A program made the translations under genes and the position numbers. Below the pieces are notes generated by a model. That model was given only the letters and a program-made list of their open reading frames with translations, was not told the DNA's origin and did no database searches. A stretch of 47,077 nt of DNA, taken from positions 1 to 47,077 of IMG/VR virus record IMGVR_UViG_2541047907_000002. The stretch is one strand, 5' to 3'. This document shows positions 35,589 to 45,302 of the stretch, in pieces. Within the stretch, counting starts at the first letter, position 1; each line of letters starts with the position of its first letter. The stretch is from a virus. Its lineage: Duplodnaviria > Heunggongvirae > Uroviricota > Caudoviricetes.

Positions 35589-36477
35589 TCTGTCCGCGAT
35601 ACCAGTACCGGATGCGGTAGAGGTGCCGGACACCGCTGTGCTGGTCACTCAGATAGTGGCGAAATATCAGGAACTGGACACGTTGTTTTCGGCCCTGGTG
35701 GAATCCGATCCGGCGTATAAATGGGCAGAGGCACTGGCTTTTCGGGTGGCGCTGATGCGCCAGCAGGTCAATGATGCTGTCCGGGGGGTACTGCTTGCGA
35801 GCGCCCGGAAGAACGACCTGGATCAGATTGGTGCGAATTTTCAGGTGCAACGTCTGGTGATTACCCCGGCAGACGACAGCACTATTCCGCCCATGCCTGC
35901 GGTATATGAAGATGATGATGCTTTTCGCGAACGTATCCAGTTGTCATGGGCACGACTCAGTACCGCGGGCGCGAAAAACGCCTACCACTATTTTGCACAG
36001 AGTGCTGATCCTGATGTGCTGGATGTGAAAGCCTACGGGCCGGAAACGCATTCACAGGAAGGGCGTGTTTTTCTTTATGTGTTATCGCGAACCGGAAACG
36101 GTACGGCATCACAACCCCTGCTGGATAAGGTGGCAGCGTCAGTCAATGATGATGAAATCCGGCCTCTGACGGATTTTGTCAGCGTCCGTGCGGCAGACAT
36201 TATTCCCTACGATGTGGTGGCAGATATTCAAATTCCCTACGGGCTGGATGGTGAACTGGTGATGAATAATGCCCGCCAGGCGCTGCAGACATATACCGAC
36301 AGTGTTCACCGGATTGGTTCTGTGGCGTCCTGCTCCGGCATGGACGGAGCCCTGCATCAGACGGGTGTGATTACAGTGGTGCTGAAATCACCGGCCAGCG
36401 ATATTGTTCCGGTAATGGGACAGGCACCATGGTGTCGCTCAGTCACGCTGAACAAGTTGGAGACAACTGATGAATGA
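35563..36477 (+). CDS. Baseplate protein J, P2 gpJ-like
   Basis: LDQIGANFQVQRLVITPADDSTIPPMPAV parallels P2 J; probable TTG start at 35563 preceded by GAGGAG. Confidence 0.8.
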   Translation: MATSQAIIDLSAIPVPDAVEVPDTAVLVTQIVAKYQELDTLFSALVESDPAYKWAEALAFRVALMRQQVNDAVRGVLLASARKNDLDQIGANFQVQRLVITPADDSTIPPMPAVYEDDDAFRERIQLSWARLSTAGAKNAYHYFAQSADPDVLDVKAYGPETHSQEGRVFLYVLSRTGNGTASQPLLDKVAASVNDDEIRPLTDFVSVRAADIIPYDVVADIQIPYGLDGELVMNNARQALQTYTDSVHRIGSVASCSGMDGALHQTGVITVVLKSPASDIVPVMGQAPWCRSVTLNKLETTDE

Positions 36478-39400
36478 CAAAATCAGAAGCATACTTCCGG
36501 TCAGCGCCAGCCTGGCAGAGCGGGTAGTGGACAGTACTGCCGGTGATATGCTGGCGGAAATTGCGGTCTGTCTGATCCGCTATGTAAAAAATCCCGACTT
36601 ATGTCCGGCGGAATTGCTGCCATGGCTGGCCTGGGAAATGGCAGTGGATACCTGGAGTGAGCACTGGACTGAGGCGGAAAAACGGGCGGCGATTAAACGT
36701 GCTGCTTACATCCACCGTCACAGGGGGACAAAAGCGGCGCTGATGGCGTCGCTGGCTGACAGTCCCTTCCGGTCGCAGATTGTTCAGTGGTATGAGCTGA
36801 ACCCACCCGGAGAACCGTATACCTTTCGTCTGAACGTGGAGCAGAAGGATTTACCGGTGCTGATGAATGATCATCAGGATCTGAAGCATGCGGTGCTCCG
36901 AGCCAAAAATCTGCGCAGCTGGTTCAGTGTTCATATTTACGGACGCCATAGCGGTGAGGTGTATGGCGCGGGATATATTTCGTCCACCGAAATACTAAAG
37001 AATCGCCTTAATGCCCGCAGTATCCTTCCGGCAGAAAGCGACGTGATGCTTCTTCCCGGGGAGCAAAAAGTGATCCCGGTAACCATTTTGCCGGCAGGGG
37101 CAGATGACAAAAGCTTTACGGCCACAGTAACCAGTGACACAGTGGTCACAGCCACGGTACGGGATGGCGCACTGCATCTTCACGGGCTGCGCCGGGGACA
37201 GAGTAGCGTGGTGCTGACCACTGTGAATGGCGTGGCGGCAACGGTGACCGTTCGCGTGGTGGCGGAGGCTCGGTTCATGGTTCGTGTCGATGACGCGAGT
37301 AAGCCGCTGTTTTTTGCTCATGCAGACGGATTCACCATTGATTATGGCGATGGTGTCGATTCCTGCGACTATACCCTTCAGGATGAGGGAGTATATACCA
37401 CCCGAGAGATTGTTGCAGGCACTGTGATGAGCCTGACTGTGAAGGGATGTGACAGTCTGTGTTTTTACCGTTCCGGCAGAGCAAGAAGTGCCCCTTTACA
37501 GGAACTGATCAGGATAAGCAGTGATCGCAGCAGTATGTATCAATTTGCCTGGGGGCAGGCAGACCTGAATAAAATTCATCCCGGCGCACTGGGTGATTTG
37601 CCGAATGTCACAACATATGCCTATGCCTTCAGCAATTGTTCGTCCCTGTCTGCGCTGCCAGATGCCCTGTTTTCCGGTTCACCGGCGGTGACTTCATTTG
37701 CGCATGTGTTTTATGGTTGCACTTCACTGGCAACACTACCGGGCGATCTGTTCAGTGACAATCCGCAGGTCACCACGTTTGTCAGTGCCTTTCAGGGCTG
37801 TACCGCGCTCGGGGAAATTCCGGCAGGGCTGTTTGACAGCGCAGGCCTGGTTACCACGTTCGCCTCCCTGTTTTACGGTTGCACGGGCCTGACCCGTCTG
37901 CCGGGAGGCCTGTTCCGGGCGGCGGTCTCTGCCACGGATTTTGCCAGCCTGTGTTACAGCTGCACGGCGCTGACGGCGTTACCTGCCGGACTGTTCACGG
38001 GAGCGGTGAGTGCGAAAAGTTTCAGTATGGCCTTTGCATACTGTCGCCAGCTGGCAACGCTGCCGGATGACCTGTTCAGCGGGCTCGGGCAGGTGACGGG
38101 ATTTTATCAGACCTTTCAGTACTGTCAGGCACTGACCACGCTGCCGTCACGACTGTTTTATGACTGCGTGTCGGTGATCTCGTTTGGTGGTACTTTTCGT
38201 AACTGTACCAAACTTACCACCCTGCCGGAGGATGTGTTTGTCATCCGTGACGGCACATCACAGATAACTCTGGCTGAGGTGTTCAGTTACTGCACGGCGC
38301 TGACTGCGGTACCGACGGGACTGTTTGAGCCGGTGAAGGCGCGAATCAGCAATGCCGGTTACGCCTTCATGTATGCGGGCCTCACCCGTGTACCGGCCCG
38401 TCTGTTCGCGGGTGCGGTGAACTGCACCACGTTCAGTCAGGTTTTTGCCAACTGTTCAGCCCTGGAGGAAACCGGCGATGAGGTATTTGTCGGGTGTGAT
38501 GCTGCTGTGAGTGCGGCGCAGGCGTTTTACAGATGCAGAACGCTGAGCACGGTCGGGGCTGGGCTGTTTACGGACTGTGGACGTATAACAAATTTTCTGG
38601 GGGCATTCAGTCTCTGTTATGCGCTGTCGTCCATACCGGAAAATCTGTTTGAGGGATGCAGCGCGGCCACGAATTTTTATGAGACGTTTTACAGTTGTCA
38701 GGCGCTGGTCGCCCTGCCGGATTCCCTGTTTGCTGCCTGTGAAGGTACCGATAACATCAGCCTGTATGGCACATTTGCATACTGCGCAGCACTGGTGTCG
38801 ATTCCTGACGGATTATTCAGTGCCATCAGGAGCCGTATCAGCACGGCTCAGGTGGCATTTCGAGGCTGTTCATCACTTACCACAGTCCCTTCCGGTCTGT
38901 TCGCGGATGCCACAAACTGCGGGAATATCGACTCTGCTTTTCTGGACTGTACGGCACTGAGCACTGTGGGCGATGAGGTGTTCAGCGGATGTACTGCCCT
39001 GACGTCTGCCCATAACGTTTTTTCGGGGTGCCTGACCCTGACAACCACGGGTGACCGTCTTCTGGCCGGCTGTACGGCACTGAAATATGTGAGCGGGGTG
39101 TTTGAGGGATGCAGTGCCCTGACCTCCACGGGAGGGGCGCTTCTGTCCGGTTGTACGTCACTGACATCCGCGACGGGCCTGTTCAGCGCGTGCAGGCGTC
39201 TGGTCACGGTCCCGGAAGACACGTTCCGGGACTGCGGGGCGCTGATAAGCGCCGGGGAAACCTTTGCCGGGTGCACATCCCTGACCGGAATACCGGATGC
39301 GTTGTTTGCGGACTGTCCTTCACTGAAATCGGCGGAAAAGATGTTTTATGGCTGCAGCGCACTGGTCAGCGTGCCACCGGATATTGTGAAGCCAGGCGAC

Positions 39401-39619
39401 ACAGCCGGGTCAGTGAACTGGATGTTCCGTGAATGTTCATCGCTGGCGGTGGATATCAACACTCTCTTCACGCAGACCTTTCCTGAAGGTTACTCGCTGG
39501 CGTATCTCTTCGACGGGTGCAGTAACGTGACGGGCAGCAAAAGTGAATTTCTGGCGAAGTTTCCGTCACCGGTGACTTCAGCATATTGTTTTGATGACTG
39601 TCCGTTACTGACGGACTGA
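36470..39619 (+). CDS. Tail protein I (P2 gpI-like N-domain) fused to an Ig-like domain and a long array of ~23-residue leucine-rich-repeat-like units
   Basis: 1049 aa; N-terminal ~180 aa resemble phage tail protein I; a Big_2-like segment follows; the remaining ~680 aa are roughly 25-30 repeats of pattern F-x2-C-x2-L-x2-(L/I)P-x2-LF. Confidence 0.7.
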   Translation: MNDKIRSILPVSASLAERVVDSTAGDMLAEIAVCLIRYVKNPDLCPAELLPWLAWEMAVDTWSEHWTEAEKRAAIKRAAYIHRHRGTKAALMASLADSPFRSQIVQWYELNPPGEPYTFRLNVEQKDLPVLMNDHQDLKHAVLRAKNLRSWFSVHIYGRHSGEVYGAGYISSTEILKNRLNARSILPAESDVMLLPGEQKVIPVTILPAGADDKSFTATVTSDTVVTATVRDGALHLHGLRRGQSSVVLTTVNGVAATVTVRVVAEARFMVRVDDASKPLFFAHADGFTIDYGDGVDSCDYTLQDEGVYTTREIVAGTVMSLTVKGCDSLCFYRSGRARSAPLQELIRISSDRSSMYQFAWGQADLNKIHPGALGDLPNVTTYAYAFSNCSSLSALPDALFSGSPAVTSFAHVFYGCTSLATLPGDLFSDNPQVTTFVSAFQGCTALGEIPAGLFDSAGLVTTFASLFYGCTGLTRLPGGLFRAAVSATDFASLCYSCTALTALPAGLFTGAVSAKSFSMAFAYCRQLATLPDDLFSGLGQVTGFYQTFQYCQALTTLPSRLFYDCVSVISFGGTFRNCTKLTTLPEDVFVIRDGTSQITLAEVFSYCTALTAVPTGLFEPVKARISNAGYAFMYAGLTRVPARLFAGAVNCTTFSQVFANCSALEETGDEVFVGCDAAVSAAQAFYRCRTLSTVGAGLFTDCGRITNFLGAFSLCYALSSIPENLFEGCSAATNFYETFYSCQALVALPDSLFAACEGTDNISLYGTFAYCAALVSIPDGLFSAIRSRISTAQVAFRGCSSLTTVPSGLFADATNCGNIDSAFLDCTALSTVGDEVFSGCTALTSAHNVFSGCLTLTTTGDRLLAGCTALKYVSGVFEGCSALTSTGGALLSGCTSLTSATGLFSACRRLVTVPEDTFRDCGALISAGETFAGCTSLTGIPDALFADCPSLKSAEKMFYGCSALVSVPPDIVKPGDTAGSVNWMFRECSSLAVDINTLFTQTFPEGYSLAYLFDGCSNVTGSKSEFLAKFPSPVTSAYCFDDCPLLTD

Positions 39620-41181: not shown

Positions 41182-42654
41182 ATGTCCGGACTACATGGTG
41201 TTGAAACCATTGAACTGACGACAGGAACGGTTGCCGTGCAGACCATCTCCACGGCAGTGATTGGTCTGGTGGGGACAGCACCGGATGCTTCCGGTGGTGT
41301 GTGTGCTTCCGGTACTACCGGATCGTGGCTGCTGGGAACGGCGCTGGATTTTACGGCGAAACAGGAAGGGCGGGCCGGCAATAAGATTTCGGTGGTTGCC
41401 GTCGCGGCCACAGAACAAAGTGCGCAGACTACGGCCACGCTGGAAGGTACGACCCTGACGATAACACTGGGGACGGATGAACACAGCCAGGTTAACGCGA
41501 CTGTGGACCGTGTGACTGAAGTGGTGAATGCGCTGGGTGATTCACCTGTGACGGCGGCGGTCAGTACCCTGAATGCAGGAGGCGCTGAAAATCATGTGGT
41601 GCCGCCGTTCAGCCTGACGTTATCCGGCGGGGAAGATGAGGCGTTCCCGGTTAATACACCGGTGGTGGCAGGGGCCATTACTCAGGCGGGAAAACTGGGG
41701 GCCGCCGGGACACTGTATCCGGCTCTGCGAGATATTTTTGACCAGACCGGTGCTCTGGTGATTGTGGTGCGTGCGGAAAGTAAACCGAAAGCGAAAGAGG
41801 CTGAACAACGTGCGGCGGTGATTAAGGCCATGGAAGCACTGACGGAAAGCAAGGGAAAAACAGGCTACCAGCCGCGCATCCTCATTGCCACGGGTTACAG
41901 TGAGGATGATGGCGTGGCAAAGGCGCTGGAAACGTATGCCGCGAAGCTGCGGGCCGTCGCCTATGTTGACTCGCCATCAATGGCAACGCCGCAGGATGTG
42001 GTTCAGCGTCGCGCATCCTTTGGCGGTCGCGTGGAGCTGCTGCGTCCGCGAGTGTCAGTAACGGATGACAGCGGGCAGACGGTATTTCGTCCGTATTCGG
42101 CACGCGCTGCCGGGCTGCGTGCCCGTATTGATTACGAAAAAGGATGGTGGTGGTCCAAATCAAACCAGGACGTGATGAATATCACCGGACTGGAGCAGGT
42201 GGACACATTTATTCTCGGGGAGCAGAACTGCACGGCCAACCTGCTGAACATGGAAAACATCTCCACCATTATCCGGCATGACGGTTTTAAACACTGGGGT
42301 AACCGCCTGTGTTCATCCCACAGCCAGCTGCGTTTTGAGTCTGTGCGCCGTACGGCTGATGTGATTGAGGACAGCATTCAGGAGGCCATGCTGCCTTATG
42401 TCGATCGTCCGCTTGATCGGGATGTGGCGGACGACATTCTTGGCAGTATTAATGCGTATATGCGTCAGCTTAAAAATCTGGGAGCGATCCACGGTGGCAG
42501 CGCCTGGCTGAATGATGAACTGAACACGGCAGAAAACCTGGCAGCCGGGTGGTTGTATATCGACTATGACTTCGGACCAAAGTCGCCACTGGAGCGTCTG
42601 ACGCTGCGGACAATGATCAACAATAAACTGGCACAGGAGGAACTGACAGTATGA
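41182..42654 (+). CDS. Contractile tail sheath protein, P2 gpFI-like
   Basis: 490 aa; GLRARIDYEKGWW, IRHDGFKHWGNRLCS and WLYIDYDFGPKSPLERLTLR parallel P2 FI as recalled. Confidence 0.85.
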   Translation: MSGLHGVETIELTTGTVAVQTISTAVIGLVGTAPDASGGVCASGTTGSWLLGTALDFTAKQEGRAGNKISVVAVAATEQSAQTTATLEGTTLTITLGTDEHSQVNATVDRVTEVVNALGDSPVTAAVSTLNAGGAENHVVPPFSLTLSGGEDEAFPVNTPVVAGAITQAGKLGAAGTLYPALRDIFDQTGALVIVVRAESKPKAKEAEQRAAVIKAMEALTESKGKTGYQPRILIATGYSEDDGVAKALETYAAKLRAVAYVDSPSMATPQDVVQRRASFGGRVELLRPRVSVTDDSGQTVFRPYSARAAGLRARIDYEKGWWWSKSNQDVMNITGLEQVDTFILGEQNCTANLLNMENISTIIRHDGFKHWGNRLCSSHSQLRFESVRRTADVIEDSIQEAMLPYVDRPLDRDVADDILGSINAYMRQLKNLGAIHGGSAWLNDELNTAENLAAGWLYIDYDFGPKSPLERLTLRTMINNKLAQEELTV

Positions 42655-43169
42655 ACACAGGTGAAAAAAAACTGTTGCGTGGCTGGACGTTGTTTCTGCC
42701 TGGTGGGATCCGTCTTCAGGGGGCGCATGAATACACGCCGCCTGCCATTAATATCTCAACAGTGGATATCAAAACCGGTGCAATGGATGCACCGGTGGCA
42801 GTGGATGACGGCATGGAAGCGCTGACCTGCTCATTTAAGATTTATGGTTACGATGTCTCCATGCTGACGCTGCTGGGATTACAGGCCGGGCTTTATTCAC
42901 CGGAGATCGTTGTCCGCCAGGCTTACCGGGTGGGGAATGCGACCAGCGGGCAGGTGGAAACCCTGCAGGGGATGATCACCAGTATCACGCCGGATGCGCG
43001 TCCGTCGACATCACAGGCAGATGCCTCGGTGACGGTGGAAATGTCGCTGAGTTATTACCGTCAGGTTGTCGACGGTGTGGAAACCATCTGCATTATTCCG
43101 GAGGAATTTGTGCGCCGTATTAACGGCGTGAATGTTCTGTCGGATCTGAAAAAAATTATCCGGGTTTAA
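42651..43169 (+). CDS. Tail tube protein, P2 gpFII-like
   Basis: 172 aa; ATGA overlap with sheath gene; C-terminal YYRQVVDGVE...INGVN parallels P2 FII. Confidence 0.75.
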   Translation: MNTGEKKLLRGWTLFLPGGIRLQGAHEYTPPAINISTVDIKTGAMDAPVAVDDGMEALTCSFKIYGYDVSMLTLLGLQAGLYSPEIVVRQAYRVGNATSGQVETLQGMITSITPDARPSTSQADASVTVEMSLSYYRQVVDGVETICIIPEEFVRRINGVNVLSDLKKIIRV

Positions 43170-43189
43170 TTTCCGTATCCTGTCATTCA

Positions 43190-43218
43190 GGCGGCACATG
43201 CCGCCTTTTCTTTTTTTA
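43190..43218 (+). terminator. Hairpin plus T-run between the tube and gpE genes (attenuator-like)
   Basis: Stem GGCGGC/GCCGCC with loop ACAT followed by a T-rich run (TTTTCTTTTTTT). Confidence 0.45.
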
Positions 43219-43229
43219 AGGAGACGTTT

Positions 43230-43532
43230 ATGTCAGAAAAAAACAGTGTGCCTGCCAGCAGTGTGGAAATTGTGTTATCCGTGCCGTATGTCACCACATC
43301 AGGGCAGATGATCACGTGTGTCACCATGCGTGCGCCCACCGTCCGTGACAGGCTGCTGCATCGACGGAGCACCAAACCGGAAGCCGAGGCCGATCTGGAC
43401 ATGATAGCCGGACTGTGCGGGATGAACGCGGCGGACATGATGAACATGGAAGCGTGTGATTACCTGGCCCTGGAGCGGCAGTTTAATGTTTTTTTGCTGC
43501 CGCCGGTCCGGCGGAAGAAGACAGCATCCTGA
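43230..43532 (+). CDS. Tail assembly chaperone gpE (zero-frame product)
   Basis: 100 aa ORF before the tape measure gene; contains the slippery run T TTT TTG near its 3' end. Confidence 0.6.
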   Translation: MSEKNSVPASSVEIVLSVPYVTTSGQMITCVTMRAPTVRDRLLHRRSTKPEAEADLDMIAGLCGMNAADMMNMEACDYLALERQFNVFLLPPVRRKKTAS

Positions 43533-43669
43533 CAGCGATACGGCGCGCCGGTGCCTGGTTTGGCTGGTCTCCCTGTGAGGTGATGGCGCTGCCATATGCG
43601 GATTTTGTGGCAATGATGCTGGCGGAGTCGGAAGAGAGGAAACGACGTTATGGCAACGGTTGGCGATAA
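43230..43669 (+). CDS. Tail assembly chaperone gpE' (predicted -1 programmed frameshift product)
   Basis: Heptamer T_TTT_TTG at 43490-43496 in the gpE frame; the -1 frame is open for 58 codons from 43496 to a TAA at 43667-43669, overlapping the tape measure start, as in P2 E/E'. Confidence 0.5.
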
Positions 43670-45302
43670 CCTTAAAGCGAATATCAGGATCGGCGGCACG
43701 ATAGATCCGTCCTGGCGAAATTCAGTCGAAGGACTGAAAAAAGGGCTTTCCGGAGCAACACGGGAAGTGGCACGTCTGACGCGCCAGCAGGATGTACTGA
43801 AACGAAAAATTCAGGCCGGTGTACTGGCCGGGCAGGATATTACCGATCTGCGAAAGCAGTATGAAAAGCTGGGCAAAAAAATACATGATGCCACCGGGGA
43901 GCAGGACAAATTTAACCGTAAGCTGGCACGCGCTGATCGTCTGGCCCGCTGGAAAGGGCGTATCGGTAGTGTACTGAAAACCGGAGCCGGGCTTTCAGTG
44001 GGGACCGGACTGACACTGGCCGCCGGTACCACCGCCGTGCTGAACCGGAATACGGAGACGGCAGAGCGGGCAGGAATAGCCCGGAGTTACGGGGTGGATT
44101 ATGAAACCTACGCGGCGTGGGATTCACTGGCCCGGCTGATGGGACTGAACGGCGAAAACATTGGTGATCTGTTTGAGGAATACCGGAATAAGGTGTTCGA
44201 CGATAACAATGGTGCCACGGATAAAGGGGCCATTCAGGAGGTGTTTGGTGCGCTGGGGCTGAAAGCGGGTGTGATGGCCGGAAAAAGCAACCAGGAGCAG
44301 GTGGAATTTTTATTTGATCGTTTACTGCAGGTGGAAAATGAACAGGTGGCTGCCGGGATGGCAGATGCATTGTTTGGTGGTGAGGCCAATAAAATTCTGA
44401 CCTGGATGCGTCTGTCAGGAAAAACTTACCGGGAACTTATCAGTGAGCAGAAACGCTATAACCTGGTGACAAAGGAAGGAGCAGACGGCGCAGTCAAGGG
44501 GCATATGGCGCTGTCAAATCTCCGTAGTGTTCTGAGTTCGTCCATTGATGAAATCAGCGGACAACTGGGTAATGAACTGGCACCACATATTCAACAGGTG
44601 ACGGATGACCTTGCGGCCTGGTTTAAGGATGGTGGACTGGAAAAAATCCGGGCATTTATCCGTGATGATGCCCTGCCGGCGCTGATCGACATGGCTGCGT
44701 GGATGTGGAAATTCGGAAAAGTTCTGGCTGGAATAACGCAGAAAGCGATTGAGTGGGGGCTGACAGATGATCCGCGTCAGGACCGGCGAGAAGTACTGGA
44801 ATATCTGGCAAAAATGGCGTCGCCGGAGATGGCGAGAGCGGTGGCGCAGAAAAACGGTCAGGGTGAATGGTTTGAAGAACTGCTCAGGCAAAATCCGGAC
44901 CTGACGAAACAGGTTGTACAGGCCTATAAAGATACCCGCGGTTACCTTCCCTGGAATCATGATGATAAAAAGTTTGATGCATTTCTCGACCCTTTGCTGG
45001 GACCGAAGGATGAACCTGATTTTAATGCGATAAAAGAAAAATCCCGCGCTTACATTGACGGACTTCCTGCGGCAGGTCAGGGGAGGGAAAACACGGATCG
45101 CCTTTCGGCACTTCAGTATACCCCCGGCAGTATCAGCCAGGTGGAGGTTAAACCCACATATCAGATACGGGCAGAATTTAACATCACCCAGAAACCCGGC
45201 GAGGATGCCGGACAACTGGCAGACAGGGTGACGAAAAATCTGGGGGATATTCATTTTGGTCAGCGTTCCCGTATGACCGATGGTGATGCATTCTGGGGGT
45301 GA
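43650..45302 (+). CDS. Tail tape measure protein (gpT-like)
   Basis: 550 aa, helical/Ala-Gly rich, located between the chaperone and gpU genes. Confidence 0.75.
   Translation: MATVGDNLKANIRIGGTIDPSWRNSVEGLKKGLSGATREVARLTRQQDVLKRKIQAGVLAGQDITDLRKQYEKLGKKIHDATGEQDKFNRKLARADRLARWKGRIGSVLKTGAGLSVGTGLTLAAGTTAVLNRNTETAERAGIARSYGVDYETYAAWDSLARLMGLNGENIGDLFEEYRNKVFDDNNGATDKGAIQEVFGALGLKAGVMAGKSNQEQVEFLFDRLLQVENEQVAAGMADALFGGEANKILTWMRLSGKTYRELISEQKRYNLVTKEGADGAVKGHMALSNLRSVLSSSIDEISGQLGNELAPHIQQVTDDLAAWFKDGGLEKIRAFIRDDALPALIDMAAWMWKFGKVLAGITQKAIEWGLTDDPRQDRREVLEYLAKMASPEMARAVAQKNGQGEWFEELLRQNPDLTKQVVQAYKDTRGYLPWNHDDKKFDAFLDPLLGPKDEPDFNAIKEKSRAYIDGLPAAGQGRENTDRLSALQYTPGSISQVEVKPTYQIRAEFNITQKPGEDAGQLADRVTKNLGDIHFGQRSRMTDGDAFWG

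Follow-up and report, generated by a model that had tools for sequence, protein, structure and literature searches.

A probable programmed -1 ribosomal frameshift of the phage P2 E/E+E' type in the tail module of a prophage

The tail assembly chaperone gene described here very probably contains a programmed -1 ribosomal frameshift of the type associated with genes E and E+E' of phage P2. The gene is found in a viral stretch of 47,077 nucleotides (IMG/VR record IMGVR_UViG_2541047907_000002), the whole of which is referred to below as the window. Close to the 3' end of the gpE reading frame lies a slippery heptamer, T_TTT_TTG, from which the -1 frame remains open until it has run into the start of the tape measure gene, such that a single start codon would give rise both to gpE and to a longer E+E' fusion. 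That the slip takes place, the frequency with which it does so and the roles of the two proteins are all inferred from the anatomy of the site, from its conservation and from the selection acting on the -1 frame. The features that underpin the argument are listed below.

41182-42654: tail sheath gene (Pfam and PHROGs)
42651-43169, + strand: tail tube gene, FII-like (PF04985, 81 bits), the 5' neighbour used to place the chaperone gene
43189-43217, + strand: hairpin resembling an intrinsic terminator, AGGCGGC-ACAT-GCCGCCT and then TTTCTTTTTTT, in the interval from the end of the tube gene (43169) to the gpE start codon (43230)
43218-43223, + strand: AAGGAG, Shine-Dalgarno sequence of the gpE gene
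43230-43532, + strand: gpE-type tail assembly chaperone gene, zero frame (open reading frame and translation; 100 aa, 11.1 kDa)
43484-43486, + strand: TAA that closes the -1 frame one codon 5' of the slip site and leaves E' without an upstream start
43490-43496, + strand: slippery heptamer T_TTT_TTG, in phase with gpE (X_XXY_YYZ); zero-frame codons GTT (43488), TTT (43491) and TTG (43494)
43496-43669, + strand: E' extension in the -1 frame, 57 sense codons (43496-43666) and TAA
43500-43514, + strand: candidate hairpin CCGCCG-GUC-CGGCGG, which begins 3 nt downstream of the heptamer
43636-43639, + strand: GAGG, Shine-Dalgarno sequence of the tape measure gene
43650-45302, + strand: tape measure protein gene, 550 aa (phrog_3654, E=1e-213)

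The heptamer forms part of a run of seven Ts (43489-43495, hence T7G) and is located 13 codons before the gpE stop. A first-pass annotation of this DNA had placed a slippery heptamer here in the gpE frame, and the codon phase proves to be correct. The same annotation had the -1 frame open for 58 codons and overlapping the start codon of the tape measure gene, which is also what is found: the frame is open from 43487 to the TAA at 43667-43669, the 58 codons being 57 sense codons, with the translation AAAGPAEEDSILTAIRRAGAWFGWSPCEVMALPYADFVAMMLAESEERKRRYGNGWR, plus the stop, and the E+E' frame overlaps the tape measure gene (ATG at 43650) by 20 nt. The predicted fusion, which consists of 43230-43496 joined to E', has 146 aa and a mass of 16.2 kDa. 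Since no more than one codon of open -1 frame precedes the heptamer, a productive shift is limited to 43487-43532, and within this interval T7G is the sole canonical slippery heptamer. The TAA that closes the frame on the upstream side is found within a context, cagtt(t/c)aatg(t/c), that is kept in relatives. The first GTG and ATG codons of the -1 frame are not encountered until 43580 and 43583, respectively, and have no usable Shine-Dalgarno sequence.

The identity of the zero-frame protein comes from profile searches and from the company that the gene keeps. With Pfam the 100-aa protein belongs to PF10109 (Phage_TAC_7, 'tail assembly chaperone E/41/14'), scoring 41.7-45.2 bits against a cut-off of 25 with a match that spans profile positions 2-78 of 79, and with PHROGs it matches phrog_166 ('tail protein', E=7e-22). 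The gene is positioned between those for the tail tube and the tape measure protein, as in the P2-type pair, within the order sheath, tube, gpE, tape measure, gpU, gpX and gpD that is given by Pfam and PHROGs together. For the tape measure protein, several PHROGs named 'tail length tape measure' ranked below phrog_3654 and no Pfam or NCBIfam model matched; its start at 43650 is the one annotated in an E. coli relative.

What weight should be attached to an open frame that follows a slippery heptamer? Of the codons in the tail genes, 3.3% are followed by a -1 frame that stays open over 57 codons or more. A heptamer combined with an open -1 frame also proves to be a common pattern when all six frames are scanned naively, although the scan does not amount to a significance test as many of its 'extensions' are a real gene in another frame. 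An open frame and a heptamer are thus not rare by chance, and the case for frameshifting rests on conservation.

For this comparison 12 loci were fetched from GTDB genomes, 64 from IMG/VR and one from RefSeq E. coli, along with six that carry the exact protein. In every enterobacterial relative scanned (L001-L003 and L014-L047) TTTTTTG, or TTTTTTA in Cedecea, is found at the same codon, and in each of these relatives a -1 extension of 55-59 residues terminates at the tape measure start. The most divergent among them, from Trabulsiella and Cedecea, have a gpE that is 54-56% identical to that of the window, and across the enterobacterial clades the extension conserves the peptide RRxGxWFGWxPxxxxAxP..F......E.ER. 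The identical two-frame arrangement is present in more than 35 independent assemblies. Within 27 unique close relatives the heptamer is invariant, with variation at 2 of the 30 bases upstream and 1 of the 12 downstream.

The most informative region is 43533-43649, which separates the gpE stop from the tape measure start and which can therefore be encoded by the -1 frame only. Among the same 27 relatives the variable sites of this region are distributed over -1 codon positions 1, 2 and 3 as 7, 8 and 25 (chi-square p=4.6e-4) and there are zero indels, as compared with the spacer between the tube and E genes, which contains indels and is variable at 45 of its 60 sites. When the window is compared with nine relatives by the Nei-Gojobori method, the -1 frame has a dN/dS of 0.04-0.40 and a dS of 0.27-0.88 that falls in the same range as the gpE body, and the same bases read in either of the other two frames return a dN/dS above 1. 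The conserved RRAGAWFGW core sits upstream of the first GTG or ATG of the -1 frame. Because the site and the peptide are conserved, substitutions follow the codon positions of the -1 frame, dN/dS is low and an independent start is lacking, the -1 ORF is, on these sequence comparisons, a real coding region that can be entered only from gpE within 43487-43532.

The 36 nt over which both frames are coding (43497-43532) are unusually invariant, with 7 variable sites. Here the zero-frame tail LLPPVRRKK and the -1-frame AAAGPAEE are partly conserved out to the phages yong2 and Chris1 (as MLPPxKRPK and AAAR..., respectively), and because this holds for both of them, the C-termini of gpE and of the -1 product may both matter.

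The same evidence bears on the other ways in which such an arrangement could come about. The RNA polymerase rather than the ribosome might slip, adding one U at T7 (43489-43495) so that a subset of the mRNA carries E and E' in frame; the run does consist of seven Ts, and bacterial RNA polymerase is known to reach the -1 frame by slipping on homopolymers (PMC5009743). Against this, P2 has the same arrangement with T6, and in yong2 and Chris1 a run of T5, too short for the polymerase, leads into a homologous E'. Efficient slippage by the E. coli enzyme usually needs runs of about 8-9 or more, longer than the T7 run, and the X_XXY_YYZ phase that is conserved in all relatives is needed for ribosomal but not for transcriptional slippage, all of which makes transcriptional slippage very improbable. 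Still less probable is that E' is a separate small gene of about 28 aa, translated without any frameshift from the internal GTG at 43580 or ATG at 43583. Gene callers do sometimes call such fragments, a 39-aa ORF is annotated there in yong2, and six stand-alone fragments (41-87 aa) are to be found in a set of 1.84 billion representative proteins, but the most conserved part of the extension, ILTAIRRAGAWFGWSP, is upstream of those starts and under purifying selection. Moreover, the GAGG that precedes the ATG at 43583 does so by only 2 nt, which leaves no usable ribosome binding site, and the internal Met does not keep its position in the Cedecea clade.

The least probable of the alternatives is that the open frame is due to chance, or that a decaying gene has been split by a frameshift mutation or by an error in sequencing a homopolymer. 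The frequency of open -1 frames of this length, the abundance of heptamer-like strings in the naive six-frame scan and the error-prone nature of homopolymers can all be cited in its favour. However, the arrangement is identical in the independent assemblies counted above and in clades down to 54% identity, both the zero-frame stop and the upstream -1 stop are kept, and the -1 frame has a dN/dS far below 1.

A programmed ribosomal frameshift at T7G would operate as follows. Most ribosomes would read gpE to its own stop and so produce the 100-aa tail assembly chaperone. A minority would slip by -1 on U_UUU_UUG with tRNA-Phe (UUU, 43491-43493) in the P site and tRNA-Leu (UUG, 43494-43496) in the A site; in a tandem slip both tRNAs would re-pair to UUU UUU, and in the alternative tRNA-Phe alone would slip with the A site still empty. 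Reading would then resume at GCU (43496) and continue for 57 codons to the TAA at 43667-43669, giving a fusion whose first 88-89 residues are held in common with gpE and are followed by a predicted helical E' domain. The predicted junction peptide is QFNVF(L/F)AAAGPAEEDSILTAIR: a tandem slip after decoding of Leu would give ...NVFL-AAAG... and the peptide QFNVFLAAAGPAEEDSILTAIR, and a P-site-only slip would give ...NVFF-AAAG... and the peptide QFNVFFAAAGPAEEDSILTAIR. By analogy with G/GT of lambda and E/E+E' of P2, the shared part of the two proteins would bind the tape measure protein and E' would recruit tube subunits. By the same analogy the frequency of slippage would set a fixed ratio of the two proteins for tail assembly, with neither of them staying in the virion.

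Two candidate stimulatory elements were considered. The hairpin at 43500-43514 is unsupported in this role: its stability of about -11.8 kcal/mol is no better than that of shuffled sequence (z=-0.4), dual coding (LPP and AAA) places a constraint of its own on the bases, and its presence in the more distant relatives is inconsistent. P2 and the relatives from Trabulsiella and Cedecea do have stems at a similar position, but in yong2 the hairpin is absent or different. The account of the slip site in PMC3091744 predicts no hairpins downstream of it in P2 and three Burkholderia phages. A GGAG at 43472-43475, 14 nt upstream of the slip site, was rejected as a Shine-Dalgarno-like stimulator, because its bases belong to a conserved protein motif and are spaced differently from the site in P2, yong2 and Chris1. 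A search of 43100-43800 against Rfam returned only a chance match to a lncRNA, far below threshold.

How closely does the arrangement follow that of P2 itself? In P2 (NC_001895), where E and E+E' are annotated, the same heptamer (GGT TTT TTG) is found near the 3' end of E, the chaperone gene likewise lies between the tube gene FII and the tape measure gene T with PF10109 in its zero-frame part, and the extension is also 57 residues long, without a start of its own and ending inside gene T. The two differ in the overlap with the tape measure gene (20 nt in the window versus 8 nt in P2), in the length of the T run (7 versus 6) and in the distance from the heptamer to the zero-frame stop (39 nt versus 27), and the element that hosts the window's site is a mosaic of a lambda head and a P2 tail rather than a Peduovirus. 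Genes E and E+E' of P2 are part of the FETUD operon (Christie et al. 2002, cited via PMC3091744 and PMC3931495), and a T6G slip site is described for P2 and for P2-like phages of Burkholderia (PMC3091744).

At the level of sequence the relationship is a distant one. The first-pass annotation had called the locus a P2-type gpE/E' chaperone pair and had pointed to an alignment with P2 E/E' as the means of checking it. Pairwise similarity is negligible, with BLASTP giving only E=0.018 over 33 residues of E' (FGWSPCEV... against FHWPPSEL..., residue 111 in both). In contrast, profiles do align. A profile of twelve extensions (seven enterobacterial, four from Pseudomonas and one from phage PhiKM) was compared by hhalign with thirteen P2-family fusions, and extension positions 14-41 aligned to positions 103-130 of P2 E+E' with a probability of 80% and E=1.1-1.4e-5, as against 0.4-0.6 for reversed controls; the seven enterobacterial extensions alone gave a weak match in the same register (P=0.006). 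For PF06528 (Phage_P2_GpE), which has a cut-off of 23 bits, the P2 extension scores 78.7 and the best of the relatives, from Trabulsiella, 13.5, and the window's own extension finds nothing in Pfam at E<=10, this family included; PF06528 is not matched by the window's fusion either. The extension and the fusion are likewise without a match in NCBIfam, but so is P2's own fusion, and this library is therefore unable to decide membership. The E' of the window is thus a probable distant homologue of P2 E', and not a member of PF06528 by the curated criterion. The chaperone-pair reading stands as regards position, PF10109, heptamer, conservation and selection, and has to be qualified as regards E'.

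Other searches with the extension or the fusion added little. A PHROGs search with the extension returned nothing and a PDB sequence search returned chance matches only. A single-sequence AlphaFold2 model of the fusion has a pLDDT of 72 with a helical E', and Foldseek found nothing for it at E<=0.001 in either BFVD or PDB, such that the fold is uninformative.

Phage lambda, which slips on G_GGA_AAG, provides a parallel. Its G/GT pair is like that of the window in that a chaperone gene placed before the tape measure gene undergoes a low-frequency -1 slip near its end, and the GT extension binds the major tail subunit at a fixed ratio; in contrast to these likenesses, there is no detectable sequence similarity between the two and the lambda tail is non-contractile. 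The lambda system (Levin 1993; Xu 2004, 2013, 2014) is reviewed in PMC5009743, according to which the tape measure protein is bound by G as well as by GT, recruitment of the tube protein falls to the T part, and P2-type frameshifting is 2-3 times as efficient as that of lambda. For Smp131, a Stenotrophomonas phage, and the xanthomonad prophages, T7G (in orf27/27.1 of Smp131) and T7C, respectively, are described as predicted sites (PMC3931495). Here too the run lies in a P2-type chaperone gene and the frameshift is predicted by analogy, as in the window. These are, however, true P2-like phages of another host clade, and they are likened to the window by published description.

A different form of recoding is represented by gp41 of phage Mu, where a -2 frameshift has been reported (Xu 2004, cited in PMC5009743 and PMC2628397). 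Mup41 resembles the window's gpE in lying between the tail tube and tape measure genes and in having an extension that is reached by recoding, and the two are likened by the Pfam description of PF10109, which reads 'E, or 41 or 14'. The Mu extension, however, is in the +1 frame, at CGGGGGCGA, whereas that of the window is in the -1 frame, at a T run. In the window the +1 frame is open for 28 codons only, and in the relatives it is open for 1-70 codons with a dN/dS above 1, which argues against a Mu gp41-type -2 (or +1) chaperone here; a third, -2 product from the T7 run was rejected on the evidence from the relatives.

Among the more distant relatives the extension appears to be reached by other routes. 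In the Hafnia phage yong2 (L087, 1440-1640) and the Citrobacter phage Chris1 (L088, 1430-1620) gpE is 42-44% identical to that of the window and is followed by a homologous -1 E' (…EIRRGIRFLGRRLHFAMSDYLDMPFSTF…), a fragment of which is annotated in yong2 as a 39-aa 'hypothetical protein' at 1512-1631. Their site, AAT_GTT_TTT_ATG (T5A), is not a complete X_XXY_YYZ heptamer. Slippage in the P site only is thereby implied, and may be the exact mechanism. In loci from Pseudomonas, both genomes and viral contigs (L004-L013, L049 and L051-L077, with P. syringae, P. viridiflava and P. cichorii included), there are gpE homologues of 27-33% identity, and at positions of about 1760-1890 an E'-like ...LAKELGFSxAEIMSMSFxDMIWWL is found in the +1 frame and not in the -1 frame. 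The zero-frame stop is here set in the context NTT_TGA (mostly CTT, with GTT in L010 and TTT in L011), TTTGA is invariant in 30 unique sequences, and the periodicity of substitution changes from the zero to the +1 frame at the stop. The context resembles the CUU_UGA +1 site of RF2, and no description of an RF2-like +1 site for tail chaperones was found in the literature searched.

An E'-like extension in the +1 frame is also seen in two IMG/VR loci (L048 and L050, at about 1750-1790), in PhiKM, an Escherichia phage assigned to Bcepmuvirus (L079, 2740-2960), and in Mu (L086, 2940-3100). L050 has GATGGGGGCG and L048 has GATGGGGAC, both of which resemble the CGGGGGCGA of Mu where the -2 shift is reported (PMC5009743), and a fusion is annotated in none of the three phage records.

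A tentative and rather doubtful reading of these observations is that T7G is one state of a recoding switch that has been changed repeatedly within a single chaperone family, defined by PF10109 and an E' core of the FxWxPxE type. The states would be -1 at T6-7(G/A) in Escherichia, Trabulsiella, Cedecea and P2, -1 from GTT_TTT_ATG in yong2 and Chris1, -2 at GGGGGCG in Mu-like elements, and possibly an RF2-like +1 at NUU_UGA in the P. syringae group and other Pseudomonas, with the clade of the window constituting a divergent E' subfamily without a database model. If true, the +1 route at NUU_UGA would be an undescribed mode of recoding for tail chaperones, and relatives that reach a homologous E' by different routes would offer a possible natural series for the turnover of slip sites.

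The phenomenon itself is textbook, and the window provides one more conserved instance of a well-established rule that it leaves unchanged; this instance, however, is unannotated and its E' subfamily is without a model. In the E. coli STEC313 relative, RefSeq has the zero frame as a 'phage tail assembly protein', followed by an unannotated gap and then by a 'hypothetical protein' that corresponds to the tape measure protein, and in this one relative that was inspected RefSeq/PGAP leaves blank the 117-nt stretch 43533-43649 (3435-3551 of L001). Relatives of the stretch occur in 74 of 5,426 complete E. coli genomes. Among 5.8 billion protein clusters no full-length fusion of the window's clade was found, the 12 matches each covering <=61%, and a phmmer search with the 57-residue extension against the 1.84 billion representatives recovered only the six stand-alone fragments mentioned above. 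Fusions of the P2 family are present in databases under the name 'GpE family phage tail protein'. The 146-aa E+E', whose counterpart is essential in the P2 and lambda models, is therefore missing from the records of this prophage lineage, and a profile built from the alignment of extensions would let annotation pipelines join both parts.

The element in which the site resides is, judged by its gene content, a mosaic Escherichia prophage in which a lambda-like head is combined with a P2-like contractile tail module. Its left end holds a lambdoid int/xis/exonuclease region that is 97% identical to E. coli prophages, upstream of the sheath gene lie P2-type baseplate genes and the Nu1, gpA, portal, S49 protease and capsid E genes, the latter five of the lambda family with DNA that is about 75% identical to lambdoid phages, and the P2-type contractile tail module comprises J, I, tail fibre, sheath, tube, E, T, U, X and D. 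No DNA-level match to the slip site was found in the phage collection with megablast, although tblastn did find distant phage relatives there.

Two further features of the tail module deserve mention. The gene at 36470-39619 (+ strand) encodes a protein of 1049 aa, far longer than P2 gpI, in which an N-terminal P2 gpI baseplate domain (PF09684) is followed by weak matches to Big_2 and to BspA-type leucine-rich repeats; it may be a baseplate-anchored receptor-binding protein. The hairpin and T run between the tube and gpE genes are kept in relatives with different sequences through compensatory changes, for instance as GGCAGC/GCTGCC in L030, as ACGTCCG-GTAA-CGGACGT+TTTT in L039 and as AAGGCACC...GGTGCCTT+TTTTATT in the Cedecea loci. 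Retention of the structure despite sequence change points to function, and the hairpin may act as a partial terminator, with the result that the chaperone, tape measure, gpU and gpD genes would be expressed at a lower level than sheath and tube.
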